From a virus (lineage: Duplodnaviria; Caudoviricetes): DNA of 64,000 bases. This document shows positions 18,816-41,616 of this stretch, in pieces. A program made the position numbers and the translations under genes. The stretch spans positions 224,001 through 288,000 of IMG/VR virus record IMGVR_UViG_3300027804_000001. One strand, 5' to 3'. Below the pieces are notes generated by a model. It was not told the origin of the DNA. It saw nothing but the letters and a program-made list of their open reading frames with translations, and made no database searches. How positions within the stretch are numbered: the stretch's first letter is position 1; the number at the start of each line of letters is the position of its first letter.

Positions 18816-18846
18816 AAAAAAAGAGGGAAAAACCCTCTTTTTTTTT
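18816..18846. terminator. symmetric (bidirectional-looking) intrinsic terminator
   Basis: AAAAAAAGAGGG-AAAAA-CCCTCTTTTTTTTT. Confidence 0.8.
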
Positions 18847-27448: not shown

Positions 27449-27951
27449 TAGTTATTATTTCTTTCTCTTATTATTGGGTTCACCGCATCCTCAAATGCTA
27501 AATGAAATTTAATTAATTTTTGAATCGTATTTAAAGTTTCGTCCTCAACTTTTAACATATCTGCATTTATATAAAATCCAGATTCTTCTCCTGATATCAA
27601 TACAAAATTAATATCAACATCGGGAATCGACCCATCTAATCTAATTTGGTTCATGTTTATTGTGAAACCAGGTTCTAAATTAGCAAGTTGTGATACCTGT
27701 TCTCTGAAGGAATCAACCAATCCAGATAACGTGTTTTTCTGATTATCGGTTAATTTCATATCCTGATTGTCAGAAGACAACATTTTAACATCAACATCGT
27801 TAATAACGTCGATATTATCGTCTATTTTATCTGTTTGAGGTAATTCCTCTTCTTTTAGGATTTTAGTGTTTCTTGTTGACTCTGTGAGATTCCTCATAAT
27901 GTTTAACATCTTTTTGGTCTCATCGTATCCTATATTTTTTCTATTTGTCAT
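27448..27951 (-). CDS. hypothetical protein
   Basis: 167 aa; TATTTATA motif 43 nt upstream. Confidence 0.75.
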   Translation of the reverse strand: MTNRKNIGYDETKKMLNIMRNLTESTRNTKILKEEELPQTDKIDDNIDVINDVDVKMLSSDNQDMKLTDNQKNTLSGLVDSFREQVSQLANLEPGFTINMNQIRLDGSIPDVDINFVLISGEESGFYINADMLKVEDETLNTIQKLIKFHLAFEDAVNPIIRERNNN

Positions 27952-28546
27952 GATTAAATAATATTCTAAAATTGAATGATGGGTTTATATCTGTATAAAT
28001 ATTTGAAAAGTTCGATTTACATACAATACCGTTAAATTTGGAGATATTTTCCAAATAACCTTGTGATGGGACGTGTTGTTTGAATATTTCGTGTTTTTCA
28101 CACAACATATCACATAGTTCTGAAACCTTCTCTATTTGTATTTCGTTATATTTGTCCCAATAGTAGTAGTTCCTCCAATTTTTTATAAAAGGTTCGGATC
28201 TATATGGGTCTCCAACCCAATTTGTATATATACCATTTATTGTATTTTTATTTAACCAACCGAGATTTTCAATTGCAATCTTAATCTGTTTTTTATCTAC
28301 CTTGGGTTCATTGAATGTGACGGAACTATGGTTGGTATCAAAAATTTGAAAAACCATACCTAACTTATTTACAATAAAATGTGGGATATCTTCGTAATTT
28401 CCGTTCTTACGATATTTTAATTTTTGAACAAAATCATCTACCCTTCTTTGAGTGTCATAAAGTAAAATTTGAGTTTTTTTACTTTTCCTTCTGGTGATGT
28501 TTAATTTGTCCTTATCTAATACGTCTACGTCTTGAATTACCAACAT
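27941..28546 (-). CDS. N-acetylmuramoyl-L-alanine amidase-like protein (Amidase_2 fold, degenerate Zn site)
   Basis: IPHFIVNKLGMVFQ, IKIAIENLGW and TDINPSFNF match the fold; expected HxT reads YDT. Confidence 0.65.
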   Translation of the reverse strand: MLVIQDVDVLDKDKLNITRRKSKKTQILLYDTQRRVDDFVQKLKYRKNGNYEDIPHFIVNKLGMVFQIFDTNHSSVTFNEPKVDKKQIKIAIENLGWLNKNTINGIYTNWVGDPYRSEPFIKNWRNYYYWDKYNEIQIEKVSELCDMLCEKHEIFKQHVPSQGYLENISKFNGIVCKSNFSNIYTDINPSFNFRILFNHDK

Positions 28547-28775
28547 TTCTAGAAACTATTTTTTTTATTATTGGTTGTTCGGTAGGTGTTGGTGTTGTTG
28601 TAATTTCTTCTTCTGACGGAATGATAGTTTCGTTATTGTCTAAATCATAGATAACATGATTGGGATTTATATCGTCTGATTCCCAATATAATTCATCAGG
28701 TGTTAATGTTGGGGTTGGTACCGCCAAATCTAAGGATGGAAAATCTTCCGTGTCTAAGGGGTTGTTTTCCAACAC
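28512..28775 (-). CDS. acidic Pro/Thr-rich ORF with basic tail; probably the -1 frame extension of the upstream membrane protein
   Basis: Frame is open back to the A10 run at 28803-28812; only a GTG start; composition continues the upstream acidic tail. Confidence 0.6.
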   Translation of the reverse strand: MLENNPLDTEDFPSLDLAVPTPTLTPDELYWESDDINPNHVIYDLDNNETIIPSEEEITTTPTPTEQPIIKKIVSRNVGNSRRRRIR

Positions 28776-28795
28776 CTCTAAGGGGTCTTCCTCCG

Positions 28796-30007
28796 TTAGG
28801 AATTTTTTTTTTCAACCTCTTCGTTTGGAACTACTGGGGTTGCGGTTACGTTAGTTTGTAACTCTATTTCTTCTGGTGTTGCAAATGGTTCGGGTACCTG
28901 TTCATCCCAAAATTGTTGTTCCAATTCTTCAGTCCACCCATCTTCTTCATCTTGGAAAATATTCTCTGAAATTGGTTCTATAGTGGAAAAATTTTCATTT
29001 TCTTCCTCTTGTGTTGGTTCTATAGTGGAAAAATTTTCATTTTCTTCCTCTTCGACCATATCAAATTTTCTTTCGGGTTCAGTTTCTTCTTGAATAGGTT
29101 CAAACACGACTTGTTTCAATTCTAACTTTTTTTCTTCAATAGATATCGGTGTATCGTTTATAATTTCTTTATTTATGTTAGGGATTTCGTCATCACCGAT
29201 TAATTCCTCTTCAACTTCTTTATGAGATTGGGGTTGTTCTACTGCTTTAACTTCAACCTCAAAATCATTAATATGAACATGTTTTTCTTTTATTTTTTCA
29301 CTGTATCTTTTAGCGGCCTCTTTTAATTTTTCATTAGGTAATGGAGGATTTAATAAAACCTCTTCTAATATTTTTAAATCTTCTTCACTTAATCTCAATC
29401 TAGATGTTTCACCAACTAAATCACTCGCTTCTATTTTATTTAATTCTTGTTCTTTTTTATAATTTTCAATTGCATTATTAATTAATTCATCATCTATAAT
29501 GTGTTTTTTTCCTTCTTCGATTGATATTTCTTCTTTTTTTCTATCTTCTTCAGTAAACTTAACTAACATGTGAAGGAATGAAAGAGAGATAATTGGTAAC
29601 ATACCTCCCGCGAAAAAGGCTAAAAATCTCTTGTGACCAACAAAATCAGTTGATTCGACACCCATAAAAGAAACTAAGGGTGAGACTAAATCAACCCAAT
29701 CTTTAAATGATTGAGAATTAATATCAATATAAGAGTAGGCAAAAAATATGTTACCTATAAATTGAACGACTGTTACAATTGCAAATGGAAAATAAACTTT
29801 CTTACCCATGTCCGCCGAAATTGCAGCCAATGCGGATAGTGCTGCAATCTCAATACCAATTGATAGGTAAATCGACCAACTTACAGGATTAGAAATTCCA
29901 TACCACTTTGTTACGTGTGATATCGAAACAATTGCCACCGTTATGATTGGTATCAAAAACGCGGCAATGATTAGTGTTTTAAAATTATTGTTTATCCAAT
30001 GTTTCAT
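28796..30007 (-). CDS. multi-pass membrane protein with long acidic disordered tail
   Basis: About four hydrophobic helices in the first 150 aa, then a Glu-rich tail; start trimmed to ATG at 30007. Confidence 0.75.
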   Translation of the reverse strand: MKHWINNNFKTLIIAAFLIPIITVAIVSISHVTKWYGISNPVSWSIYLSIGIEIAALSALAAISADMGKKVYFPFAIVTVVQFIGNIFFAYSYIDINSQSFKDWVDLVSPLVSFMGVESTDFVGHKRFLAFFAGGMLPIISLSFLHMLVKFTEEDRKKEEISIEEGKKHIIDDELINNAIENYKKEQELNKIEASDLVGETSRLRLSEEDLKILEEVLLNPPLPNEKLKEAAKRYSEKIKEKHVHINDFEVEVKAVEQPQSHKEVEEELIGDDEIPNINKEIINDTPISIEEKKLELKQVVFEPIQEETEPERKFDMVEEEENENFSTIEPTQEEENENFSTIEPISENIFQDEEDGWTEELEQQFWDEQVPEPFATPEEIELQTNVTATPVVPNEEVEKKNS

Positions 30008-30008
30008 A

Positions 30009-30302
30009 TTACCACTTAGTGACCTCTTTTTGTAATTTAGATATTTCTTCATCTATTTGTGTTTGACGTTGAACATCTAAAATTTTACGGTCAGTCGCCT
30101 GTATCATCCTTTTTTCGGATTTTAACCCCTCCACTTGTAAAATAATGGTTAATTCCCTTTTATTATATGTGGAATCTTTAATTTGTTTTATTTCGTTTTT
30201 AATTTTGGTTATTTCTCTACTATCTGAACATCCTTTAAAAAATGTTAATAGTACCACAACCAATACAATAATTGTAAAATTATTTTCAATAAACTTTTTC
30301 AT
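30009..30302 (-). CDS. putative lipoprotein with coiled coil
   Basis: MKK + hydrophobic core + FKGC lipobox-like site, then heptad-rich helix. Confidence 0.65.
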   Translation of the reverse strand: MKKFIENNFTIIVLVVVLLTFFKGCSDSREITKIKNEIKQIKDSTYNKRELTIILQVEGLKSEKRMIQATDRKILDVQRQTQIDEEISKLQKEVTKW

Positions 30303-30317
30303 ACGATATTTTTACTT

Positions 30318-31127
30318 TTATAAATAGTTTAATAGCTCAAAACTTTCGTTTCTTAGCTTCTTTATTGCTTTATCTTTCAATTGTCTAATCCTTTCTTTAG
30401 TACAACCAAACTCTTCTCCAAGGTCTTCCAAGTTAGATTCTACACCTGTTAATCCAAAATATTTTGTTACAATAATACGTTCTCTTTCATCTAAAATACC
30501 TAACATTAATTGTACTTTCTTTTTGATTTCTTCATTTGAATTCAAAATTTGTTCGGGTGATTCTGCGTTATTATTAGGTATCACATCTAAAAGAGTGTCA
30601 CCATCTTCATTTATTTGACTGAACAAACCAACACAATATGGTAAGTTATTACTAAACGGGACTTCATCGGTACTTGAAAACTTATCTTCTTCAGGTACCT
30701 CATCTTTTCTTTTATTCTTTTGTGCCTCTTGTACTAAATTTGAGGGGATTCTAATTGTTCGTGCGTTTTCATTTAGTGATGCCATTATGGATTGTCTTAC
30801 CCACCAAACTGCATACGAAATAAATTTAAGTCCACTGGTAGGATCAAATTTTTCTGATGCTTTCATTAATCCAATGTTACCTTCAGATATTAAATCCATG
30901 ATATCTAATCCCTGATTTTGATACATCTTAGCAACAGATATAACGAATCTCAAATTTCCAACAACTAATTCATTGTAAAGAGATGTCCTTTCATTCTTAG
31001 ATAAATTCTTATTTCGTAATTCTTCAAAAATAACTTCTTGTCTTTCGTGTGTAATGACAGGAATTTTACGAATGTCTTTGATGTACTGTTGGATTTCTTC
31101 GGTGGAGATAATAACAGACTTTTTCAT
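30318..31127 (-). CDS. RNA polymerase sigma-70 family factor (Bacteroidota primary-sigma-like)
   Basis: NLRFVISVAKMYQNQG..DLISEGNIGL...KFISYAVWWVRQSI (region 2); LEDLGEEFGCTKERIRQL (region 4.2). Confidence 0.92.
   Translation of the reverse strand: MKKSVIISTEEIQQYIKDIRKIPVITHERQEVIFEELRNKNLSKNERTSLYNELVVGNLRFVISVAKMYQNQGLDIMDLISEGNIGLMKASEKFDPTSGLKFISYAVWWVRQSIMASLNENARTIRIPSNLVQEAQKNKRKDEVPEEDKFSSTDEVPFSNNLPYCVGLFSQINEDGDTLLDVIPNNNAESPEQILNSNEEIKKKVQLMLGILDERERIIVTKYFGLTGVESNLEDLGEEFGCTKERIRQLKDKAIKKLRNESFELLNYL
30319..30326 (-). promoter_or_regulatory. putative late promoter TATTTATA
   Basis: Overlaps the sigma gene stop; 16 nt upstream of ATG 30302. Confidence 0.55.
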
Positions 31128-39063: not shown

Positions 39064-39916
39064 AATTAATATATTTTGAAAGGTCTAAATCCATTACAAT
39101 TTTATTTACTTTTTGTGGTACTTTATATTCCACATATGAACCATCTTCTTTCAATAAGACAATCACACACCCTAATAATTTTAGGTTTTCATATTTGGTA
39201 CCTTTTAACATCTTTAATAACAATCTCGCATACAATGGTAATTGTAAATAATAATGACCTAATGCCGTATCGTGATATTCATTAAATGGTGAGAACATTT
39301 TACCCGTGTAATGTTGTACTTCAAAGTTCTTTGGTTGATTTGTTTTCCAATCTGTAATTACCAAACCAAAATCGGTTTGTTCTTTATTTAACATCAACCA
39401 ACATTTATCGGGTTGTCCTGTGTAACCCAATTCATTATCACCAAGAACAATTTCGGTATCAAGTAAAACCGCACCTCTTTCTTCCATTAATGTTAAAAAT
39501 TCTTTACCGGCTTTAATCATGTTATTACTCCTGGTCAACTGAGTTTCATCACATTCGAAAATTGGTTGTCTCACATCTTTGTAATTACCATTTCTATTAA
39601 CGGCTTCAGTCTCAAGTTCAAAGTGAACTCTACTACCCATGTTTGTAGCATAACTACCTGCTTGTCTCCATTGTTCTTGTAATTCGGCGGCGGCTTCAGG
39701 GTCACCATTGGACATTCTCAATGAGGTTCCTTCCGCATCAAACGCTTTATGAAATTTCTTGATTAATTTGGAAACAGATGGAAATGTTTTTCTAAGAACA
39801 CCATCAATATCTCTCATATAATAAATGTGTTCTTCCTCCACAAATGTTATATCAAGTTCATTTCTTCTTTTTTCTAATAATTCATTTATCTCTTTTGAGA
39901 TTTCTACTAAATTCAT
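39035..39916 (-). CDS. PD-(D/E)xK exonuclease (RecB-like superfamily)
   Basis: FPSVSK, GSRVH..LE, GQPD, ITDWKT, YLQLPLY. Confidence 0.85.
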   Translation of the reverse strand: MNLVEISKEINELLEKRRNELDITFVEEEHIYYMRDIDGVLRKTFPSVSKLIKKFHKAFDAEGTSLRMSNGDPEAAAELQEQWRQAGSYATNMGSRVHFELETEAVNRNGNYKDVRQPIFECDETQLTRSNNMIKAGKEFLTLMEERGAVLLDTEIVLGDNELGYTGQPDKCWLMLNKEQTDFGLVITDWKTNQPKNFEVQHYTGKMFSPFNEYHDTALGHYYLQLPLYARLLLKMLKGTKYENLKLLGCVIVLLKEDGSYVEYKVPQKVNKIVMDLDLSKYINYGKKTYTYR

Positions 39917-40854
39917 TAATCTAATTGTTTTATTTTATATTCACTTAAATCACCTTTCAAATCGGCAATATCTTTATCTCCTTCTAATTTTACTATCCAT
40001 ACTTTACCCATTAATTTACCACAATTTAACTTGTGGAATAATTTTTCAGCATCAGACCAAGCATCAGGATCCAAGACTATAATAATCTTTTTAGCAGAAT
40101 TATAAAGTCTATTGAATAAATTTTGAGTCATATATTTTCCCAACATTGGTATTGAGTTGTCAAGAAATATGGAATCAAACGCACCTTCAACAATATAAAT
40201 TGGTTCATCCCAATTTATTAAATGTTCATTCCACAATAAACTTTCCTTATCAATTTCAGGATTTTTATACTTCATTTTGGTTCTTGTAAGAAAAGAACGA
40301 GCAATAAAATAATTTAAGTTTTTATTTATATCATAAGATGGAATGATAATTCTATTTTCATATAATCCTTGGTAACAAAATCCAATATTATATTTCTCAA
40401 TCATTTCATCTGTTATGTTTCTACTTTTTATATAATTCCAAGCCTGTTTAAATTGTGGTGTCAATTTAAGTCCAAGACTTACATTTTTAAAAGGAATAAA
40501 TTCTTTTGGTAATCTTACTTGTTTATAAACCCTTTTTGGTGAATCAAAATCTTCGGGTTTTAATAATTGATATTTTTTTAATTGTTTAGGGGTTCCGTAT
40601 TTTTTAATTAGTTTAAATAAAGATCCGTGTGTTTCATGTGTTTCCGCACAAACCCAACATTTAAAAACATTTTGTTTATAGTTTACCTCAAGATTTCCCT
40701 TTCCATCTCCGTGGTCTAAACCTTTTATATCGTAAGAACAAACAGGACAGTCAAAAGACATCTGTCCTCGGTAATCATTGTGCATTTTATAATCACCTAG
40801 AATATCTTCTAGTATTTCAATTACACCCGAAAAGTCTACCTCTTGTTCAGTCAT
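39916..40854 (-). CDS. DNA primase (Zn finger plus TOPRIM)
   Basis: CPVC...CWVC, RIIIP, VEGAFD, LDPD; start trimmed to ATG at 40854. Confidence 0.9.
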   Translation of the reverse strand: MTEQEVDFSGVIEILEDILGDYKMHNDYRGQMSFDCPVCSYDIKGLDHGDGKGNLEVNYKQNVFKCWVCAETHETHGSLFKLIKKYGTPKQLKKYQLLKPEDFDSPKRVYKQVRLPKEFIPFKNVSLGLKLTPQFKQAWNYIKSRNITDEMIEKYNIGFCYQGLYENRIIIPSYDINKNLNYFIARSFLTRTKMKYKNPEIDKESLLWNEHLINWDEPIYIVEGAFDSIFLDNSIPMLGKYMTQNLFNRLYNSAKKIIIVLDPDAWSDAEKLFHKLNCGKLMGKVWIVKLEGDKDIADLKGDLSEYKIKQLD

Positions 40855-40885
40855 AGTTAGAAATAATATAACCAAAAATTTTTGC

Positions 40886-40960
40886 AAAAAAAAATCCCCC
40901 AGAGACACCACCCTCCAGGGGAACCAACTAAACATGTATTTCTACACGTCCCGTCCTACT
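40886..40960 (-). ncRNA. candidate small structured RNA
   Basis: TATTTAT motif upstream; hairpin ACGTGTA-GAAA-TACATGT; then terminator TCCCCTGGAG-N8-CTCTGGGGGA-T9; GC-rich island between ruvC and primase. Confidence 0.5.
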
Positions 40961-40998: not shown

Positions 40999-41616
40999 TC
41001 AGTTGCCGGATTTTTCTGATTTAATCATATTGATGTATCCAATCACTGCGGTTGCCGCATCCGCCATATCGTAATTCTCTTTTTTAAGGTTACCAGTTTT
41101 ACCATATAACCAATTTACATCAGAACAAACGGCGTTAACATGTTCCCATATTACGTGTTTCTTATCGATATCTTTTGGATAACCACCAAACAATACGTTT
41201 CTATTTTTATCGTTCTTTCCGACTAAATCAGGAAACGCAAATTTTCTTGCATTATAAGTTGAAATGAAGGTTGGTATAATACCTAAAATATCATAACAAT
41301 TTTTCAAAATCAAAGTGTTATATCTTAATAGGGTTCCCACTGTATAAATGTTATTAGATTGTAATAATGGTTCTTCTATTATTACACGAGTAATCCCCAT
41401 ATCTTTATAACCCTCAAGATGTTTCTTGAACGCATCAGCCTTTTTTATTAATTCCTCTATTTTGTCTTCAGGCTGAGGTTTTATTTTTGGTGAGAAATGA
41501 GTTAACTCTAATAATTTGGATCCTGTTATATCAAACAGTGCCCACCCAATTGTTTTGGTTGAAATATCCAATCCCAAAATTTTTGGCTTGTTCTTAAATT
41601 TAATATCTATACTCAT
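40999..41616 (-). CDS. RuvC-like Holliday junction resolvase
   Basis: ILGLDISTKTIGW, VIIEEP, DMADA acidic tetrad pattern. Confidence 0.85.
   Translation of the reverse strand: MSIDIKFKNKPKILGLDISTKTIGWALFDITGSKLLELTHFSPKIKPQPEDKIEELIKKADAFKKHLEGYKDMGITRVIIEEPLLQSNNIYTVGTLLRYNTLILKNCYDILGIIPTFISTYNARKFAFPDLVGKNDKNRNVLFGGYPKDIDKKHVIWEHVNAVCSDVNWLYGKTGNLKKENYDMADAATAVIGYINMIKSEKSGN

Follow-up and report, generated by a model that had tools for sequence, protein, structure and literature searches.

The 64,000-nucleotide stretch analysed here (positions 224,001 to 288,000 of the IMG/VR virus record IMGVR_UViG_3300027804_000001, a phage of the Caudoviricetes; referred to below as the window) carries on its minus strand a gene of a predicted membrane protein, in which the frame read from the start codon (0 frame) is closed a few nucleotides (nt) after a run of ten adenines (A10), and the -1 frame stays open up to the start of the next gene, which encodes a protein with a predicted amidase fold. 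The same arrangement is found in related loci, and the site very probably undergoes conserved recoding, be it by RNA polymerase or by the ribosome. Comparison of the loci gives moderate confidence that programmed transcriptional slippage is the main route. The site is a further case of the class of programmed slippage and frameshift sites, distinguished by its phage setting, by the size of the family and by the combination of a hairpin with a homopolymer. The features of the locus are collected in Table 1.

Table 1. Features of the recoding site and of the genes around it (window coordinates; aa, amino acid residues; ORF, open reading frame; CDS, coding sequence)
Feature	Position	Strand	Remark
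A10 run (slippage or shift site)	28803..28812	-	sole homopolymer of at least 10 in the window; A9-A11 across 83 related loci
0-frame CDS, short isoform, 403 aa	28796..30007	-	predicted four-helix membrane domain and acidic tail, ends EKKNS
-1 frame extension, 96 codons + stop	28512..28802	-	LYWE and NPN-VIYDL motifs, basic end ...KKIVSRNVGNSRRRRIR
Overlap of extension end and amidase-fold gene start, 35 nt	28512..28546	-	next ORF ATG at 28546
Hairpin-forming sequence, 3' end abutting the A run	28813..28842	-	window copy weak: CAACC...GGTTG, large loop
Downstream gene, 201 aa, predicted Amidase_2/PGRP fold	27941..28546	-	Pfam and AlphaFold/Foldseek
Upstream ORF, 97 aa, lipobox-like N-terminus	30009..30302	-	stop 1 nt before the membrane-protein ATG
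Phage sigma-70 family gene, head of the conserved cassette	30318..31127	-	Pfam Sigma70_r2, Sigma70_r4; synteny

On the minus strand the junction reads GTT GAA AAA AAA AAT TCC TAA. The 0-frame TAA (28796-28798) is located 4 nt past the run and leaves a product with the C-terminus VEKKNS. In the -1 frame a TGA at 28812-28814 shares the first A of the run; past this codon 99 codons are open, 96 of them beyond the run, up to the TAA at 28512-28514. This frame continues from the site as KKK FLTEEDPLEVLENNPL... and, from its start to its end, is read as KKKFLTEEDPLEV...RRRRIR. If each codon is a stop with a probability of 0.076, the chance of 99 open codons is about 4e-4. The start of the gene was placed at ATG 30007 because the alignment of every homologue begins at residue 16 of the 418-aa ORF, the longest one, and the predicted products are then 403 aa (unshifted) and 498 aa (shifted). 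The first-pass annotation, made from the letters of the window alone, had described the A10 run with a 0-frame stop nearby and a -1 frame opening, an extension that ends in RRRRIR 35 nt over the amidase ATG, and two isoforms of 403 and about 498 aa. The sequence bears out the first two, with 99 open codons of which 96 lie past the run, and the sizes hold once the start is fixed as above. Long runs are under-represented in the 64 kb overall, with one homopolymer of at least 10 observed against about 5.6 expected from first-order composition. A locus from JGI sample 3300004240 (L109) shows no difference from the window over 3612 nt, A10 included, its independence from the source of the window being uncertain. 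Reassignment of the stop codon was considered and rejected, as several more 0-frame stops come after the first one.

Related loci were gathered from IMG/VR and from metagenome scans (104 in total), and in 83 of them (48 non-redundant; 78 complete) the membrane-protein ORF ends at a run of at least nine adenines. All 83 require an identical -1 shift, which amounts to one added A, and have A10 in 73 cases, A9 in 7 and A11 in 3; the run is never shorter than nine. The 0-frame stop follows 0-16 nt past the run. The -1 ORF comprises 55-161 codons and overlaps the amidase ATG in 77 of the 78 complete loci. Among 46 non-redundant loci, 32 share an overlap of 35 nt; in the others it ranges from 29 to 46 nt, except in L050, where the extension ends 21 nt before the amidase start. 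The conservation can be seen in protein databases as well: of the 120 protein clusters at 90% identity that are nearest (the 120 best of 4071 matches), 118 terminate in EKKN-x or KKK, and many representatives at 50% identity share that C-terminal ending. This retention of the run, the nearby stop and the -1 extension in 83 loci, together with the endings of 118 of 120 clusters, supports the proposal of the first-pass annotation that two isoforms arise by recoding, for which it named both frameshifting and slippage without choosing between them. As for its expectation that homologues would keep the A run with the nearby stop, they do; the few homologues that are uninterrupted still have the run, with the same C-terminal module in frame.

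The window belongs to an uncultured, AT-rich phage of freshwater metagenomes, and the family as a whole to uncultured freshwater phages, with related contigs of up to 330 kb. At the DNA level no cultured or GenBank phage matched, and a protein search gave a single distant match, in an uncultured 462-kb phage. One further locus, L108 (positions 2678-2687; Logan contig, run SRR7764486), has A10 where A11 would restore the canonical layout; as assembled, its extension is in the +1 frame and its 0 frame stays open for another 20 codons. This may reflect a true deletion, an error, or a contig derived from RNA.

Judging from the pattern of its codon changes, the extension is under purifying selection. 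Differences in the -1 frame are distributed over codon positions 1, 2 and 3 as 429, 607 and 1007, and single-nucleotide codon changes comprise 634 synonymous and 578 non-synonymous ones (52% synonymous). The conserved motifs LYWE, NPN-VIYDL-NN and KK-x-x-S-RNVGN-S/T-RRR-FR are situated well clear of the stretch shared with the amidase gene. Some sequencing platforms are prone to errors in homopolymers, and the interruption could be ascribed to a sequencing or assembly error in the run or to decay of a pseudogene. However, the same configuration occurs in 83 loci that come from many projects and assemblers and span 50-90% protein identity, and purifying selection acts on both parts of the protein; error and pseudogene are effectively refuted by the comparative data and retain a negligible probability.

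Gene callers either annotate the extension as a separate gene of 86-87 aa starting from GTG (L109:2436-2696; window 28512-28775, minus strand) or omit it. It is conceivable in principle that the extension is indeed an independent protein of about 87 aa, translated from GTG 28775 or by reinitiation past the 0-frame stop, as one gene caller made of it in L109 (86 aa). Initiation of the Bacteroidota type needs no Shine-Dalgarno sequence, and such initiation may be offered in support. Still, in 36 of 46 extensions the first ATG, if any, falls within the last 30 codons, in most loci the opening of the -1 frame lies just 2-14 nt ahead of the run, the two parts are fused in frame in six lineages, and both the A run and the hairpin described below would be left without explanation. 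Two separate genes are therefore highly improbable.

The natural fusions are observed in L011, L036, L059/L063, L105, L106 and L107, where the two parts occupy one frame; L106 resembles the type of L021 with one extra C after the run. A run of A9 or A10 is still present at the junction of these six variants, where each of the two alternative frames is closed within 0-24 codons. Slippage in them would yield the short form, as in Thermus dnaX. There is also a sister group of shorter, more distantly related membrane proteins (224-281 aa) with an uninterrupted frame and no A run, represented by L076, L088, L089, L092, L095-L097, L099, L103 and L104; their C-terminus reads ...KRLSY-x-RRDA in frame, and their genes extend past the amidase start by about 20-44 nt. 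Because both the fused variants and the short in-frame members reach the amidase gene, the ancestral protein probably did so too, and the lineages with the A run probably gained a truncated isoform.

The second conserved element of the site is a hairpin directly 5' of the run. Its 3' end lies 0-3 nt from the run in 45 of the 48 non-redundant loci (0 nt in 29), and the hairpin typically spans 24 nt (median), with 8 pairs and a loop of 5-6 nt. The mean energy is -6.8 kcal/mol as compared with -2.1 kcal/mol at 1213 other A6-8 runs of the same loci (p=6e-23; the loci being homologous, this p-value and the one given below overstate independence). The shuffle z is -2.3 and the median within-gene percentile 0.036, with 33 of 48 loci below the 10th percentile. 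In the clade of the window this helix is the only one that RNAalifold predicts between positions -28 and +80, with compensatory changes at 9 of 10 pairs; the covariation score was reached by none of 500 shuffles and exceeds those of all slid controls. In the six fused variants the mean energy drops to the background value of -2.1 kcal/mol (p=0.001). Of these six, five have a weak hairpin or none; those of L036 and L106 are moderate. A search of Rfam gave nothing relevant.

A homopolymer of ten is mutable, and the length of the tract could change during replication so that only those genomes with an extra A encode the long protein. The A10 of L108 in place of A11 and the existence of fixed in-frame variants are compatible with such phase variation at the DNA level. 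Against it, the shift-requiring consensus is found in 83 of 83 assemblies, and the A9 and A11 loci hold the same -1 relation as the others. Moreover, in the one pair compared by eye the A11 of L001 differs from the A10 of its relative L044 by substitution rather than by insertion or deletion, L106, the one in-frame form compared with a shift-type relative, differs from it (L021) by the extra C after the run and not by a longer run, and there would be no part for a conserved RNA hairpin to play. Phase variation is thus very unlikely to account for the site.

The remaining question concerns the enzyme which changes the frame. Transcriptional slippage is favoured because the run is never shorter than nine and the 5' hairpin is enriched, covaries and is reduced in the fused variants, as well as because the clade of the window lacks a predicted consensus structure downstream of the run (RNAalifold). 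In PMC5009743, bacterial RNA polymerase is described as slipping efficiently at runs of at least nine, and a nascent-RNA hairpin adjacent on the 5' side is described as stimulating its slippage in an IS630 element of Roseiflexus. The same isoforms would be made by programmed -1 ribosomal frameshifting at A_AAA_AAA or A_AAA_AAT, perhaps aided by the near stop or by downstream structure. The run of the window contains heptamers of both kinds in phase, slippery heptamers are in phase in every locus, with A_AAA_AAA so placed in both codon phases observed, and the closeness of the 0-frame stop would suit such a shift as well. For a ribosomal shift a run of seven suffices, though no locus has fewer than nine, and the conserved element is found directly 5' of the site and is weak or absent in most variants that need no shift. 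A hairpin in this position is not known to stimulate -1 ribosomal shifts but to attenuate them. Ribosomal frameshifting is accordingly considered a rather unlikely main route.

Several observations weigh against slippage, besides the homology of the loci mentioned above. The hairpin of the window itself is weak (-3.9 kcal/mol, within-gene percentile 0.17). RNAalifold finds no consensus helix for all 48 non-redundant junctions, and a helix in fixed register over these loci has modest support, with 52% paired cells as against 44%. The lack of a consensus over all loci is explained by the varying geometry and register of the hairpin, and for this reason per-locus tests and a clade-level alignment were used. 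Downstream of the run, the 70 nt of the window fold at -17.3 kcal/mol (z=-2.0; the downstream folds of the window, L018 and L019 together cover z=-2.0 to -4.1). The family as a whole shows a mild excess of downstream structure: hairpins that start 0-8 nt past the run have a median percentile of 0.31, with 12 of 47 loci below 0.1, and windows of 50 nt have a family median percentile of 0.20. The in-phase heptamers noted above belong here too, and ribosomes are reported to slide on poly(A) (PMC4363877, abstract).

According to the favoured reading, i.e. transcriptional slippage, unslipped mRNA would give the 403-aa protein, in which a membrane domain of four helices is followed by the acidic tail with its EKKNS terminus. 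In some transcripts RNA polymerase would slip on the template T10 and add one A. The slipping enzyme would be the host core RNA polymerase, because the phage has a sigma factor gene close by. The nascent-RNA hairpin that ends at the run probably assists the process in most relatives. The resulting A11 mRNA would be translated in the normal way into the genomic -1 frame, adding 96 residues with the conserved motifs and the basic C-terminus to give 498 aa, and translation of the long isoform would terminate 35 nt inside the amidase-fold gene. Slippage at the RNA level, the ratio of isoforms and any coupling to the translation of the amidase-fold gene are inferred, whereas the site with its conservation, the fact that the extension is coding, the natural fusions and the enrichment of the hairpin are established by the sequences. 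A bolder interpretation is possible and is put forward tentatively: the hairpin and A10 may form a dedicated and tunable slippage device, resembling an intrinsic terminator whose U's are replaced by A's, which would set the ratio of the short and long membrane isoforms and, by means of the 35-nt overlap, the dose of the amidase-fold protein. Such a device might serve as a switch of lysis timing or of the envelope, comparable to a holin/antiholin pair produced by transcript editing, in a family of thousands.

The N-terminal domain of the membrane protein is modelled as a bundle of long helices. From the sequence, four of them are taken to cross the membrane and the tail to be cytoplasmic. A fold search of this domain against the PDB gave no match, and its sole look-alike is DUF2637 (PF10935) in the ESM Atlas, with template modelling (TM) scores of 0.60/0.56; Pfam gives no sequence match between PF10935 and the membrane protein. 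Neither Pfam nor PHROGs matches it to a holin, and 403-498 aa with four helices is far above the known holin sizes. PHROGs had no match to the membrane protein, to its extension or to the amidase-fold protein, and Pfam had none to the fused forms. The only Pfam match of the membrane protein is a stretch resembling TacA1/DUF1778 (29300-29431, minus strand; residues 208-251 of the 418-aa ORF; E=1.9e-6, above the cut-off), and the same match is precomputed in most relatives. The acidic tail contains a tandem duplication of about 46 nt (28962-29046), by which EEENENFSTIEP is encoded twice. A short NFSTIE...ENIFQ motif recurs in the distant relatives L011, L030 and L053 and may be a conserved linear motif.

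The amidase-fold protein is a borderline case in sequence searches: it scores 23.5 bits with Pfam PF01510, below the cut-off of 26, its relatives give weak matches too, and sequence and profile searches against PDB sequences returned nothing. Its AlphaFold model (predicted TM score, pTM, 0.78) is matched by Foldseek to LysC, AmiD, AmpDh2, PlyL and PGRPs with E of 1e-4 to 1e-3 and probability 1.0. At the position in the first strand where the first zinc-binding His of Amidase_2 is expected there is a nearly invariant tyrosine, Tyr30 (LLYDT), and the protein may bind peptidoglycan rather than cut it. Coupling of its translation to the long isoform is plausible; it is suggested because the overlap is near-universal and because spa13/spa32 provides a precedent (PMC5009743).

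Both genes belong to a cassette that is syntenic across relatives, in the order DUF6576, sigma-70, lipoprotein-like ORF of about 97 aa, membrane protein, amidase-fold gene, ORF of about 170 aa, 79-aa ORF and DUF5661 protein; at the position of the 97-aa ORF the relatives carry a gene of 94-104 aa. A scan for sigma-70 promoters and terminators found them no more often than in shuffled sequence. Elsewhere in the window, an intergenic stretch flanked by minus-strand genes holds GAGGG-AAAAA-CCCTC followed by T9 (18823-18846, plus strand), which has the look of a classical intrinsic terminator. This T9 is one of three homopolymers of at least nine in the window. An A9 at 40886-40894 (T9 on the coding strand) is found about 41 nt into the ORF at 39916-40935 (minus strand); the upstream ORF ends at 40999 and does not overlap it, and no frame break is seen there in the list of ORFs.

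The protein family comprises more than 4000 database clusters, and gene callers truncate nearly all of its members or call the extension a separate small gene. The site thereby flags a systematic mis-annotation in metagenomic phage proteomes and public protein sets. The family also offers a natural experiment, since lineages that require the shift have the hairpin and most fused lineages have little or none of it; the role of a nascent-RNA hairpin in slippage on a homopolymer is thus directly testable within it. To our knowledge, few cases of transcriptional slippage have been described in DNA phages. Literature searches found no slippage case for a cassette of membrane protein and amidase and no account of this site. 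That one gene can give two protein lengths by recoding is well known, and several such systems can be compared with the present one.

The slippery heptamer and two products with a common N-terminus are shared with E. coli dnaX (A_AAA_AAG) and with the tail chaperones G/GT, the latter also being found in phages. However, these systems employ downstream structures or an upstream Shine-Dalgarno-like element, whereas the present site has a hairpin abutting on the 5' side and a run of at least nine. The closest known case is tssM1 of Citrobacter rodentium (and tssM of Yersinia pseudotuberculosis), where transcriptional frameshifting takes place at A11 (PMC4256274, abstract). There, too, an inner-membrane protein has a stop just past poly-A, extra A's restore a C-terminal domain and two lengths are produced; the abstract mentions no conserved 5' hairpin. 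The differences are that tssM1 is a bacterial secretion gene, with two tssM genes as compared with a large phage family, and that recoding at the phage site is predicted from sequence.

The other systems are described in PMC5009743. In spa13/spa32 of Shigella flexneri (as also in mxiE), slippage on an A/T run adds a C-terminal extension of about 112 aa to 25-30% of the product, and this extension terminates inside the following gene, past its start, and affects its expression, a geometry shared with the extension and the amidase-fold gene of the phages; that operon belongs to type III secretion, and the coupling was measured there, whereas in the phage it is deduced. In dnaX of Thermus thermophilus a run of nine gives mixed mRNA and two products. 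The in-frame phage variants, with the long form as default, resemble this case, while in most phage loci the short form is the default and slippage would make the long one. The IS630 transposase of Roseiflexus has a stem-loop directly 5' of its slip motif, similar to an intrinsic terminator, as the phage site does; its motif is the heteropolymeric T5C5, from which a C is deleted, whereas A9-A11 of the phages requires an insertion.

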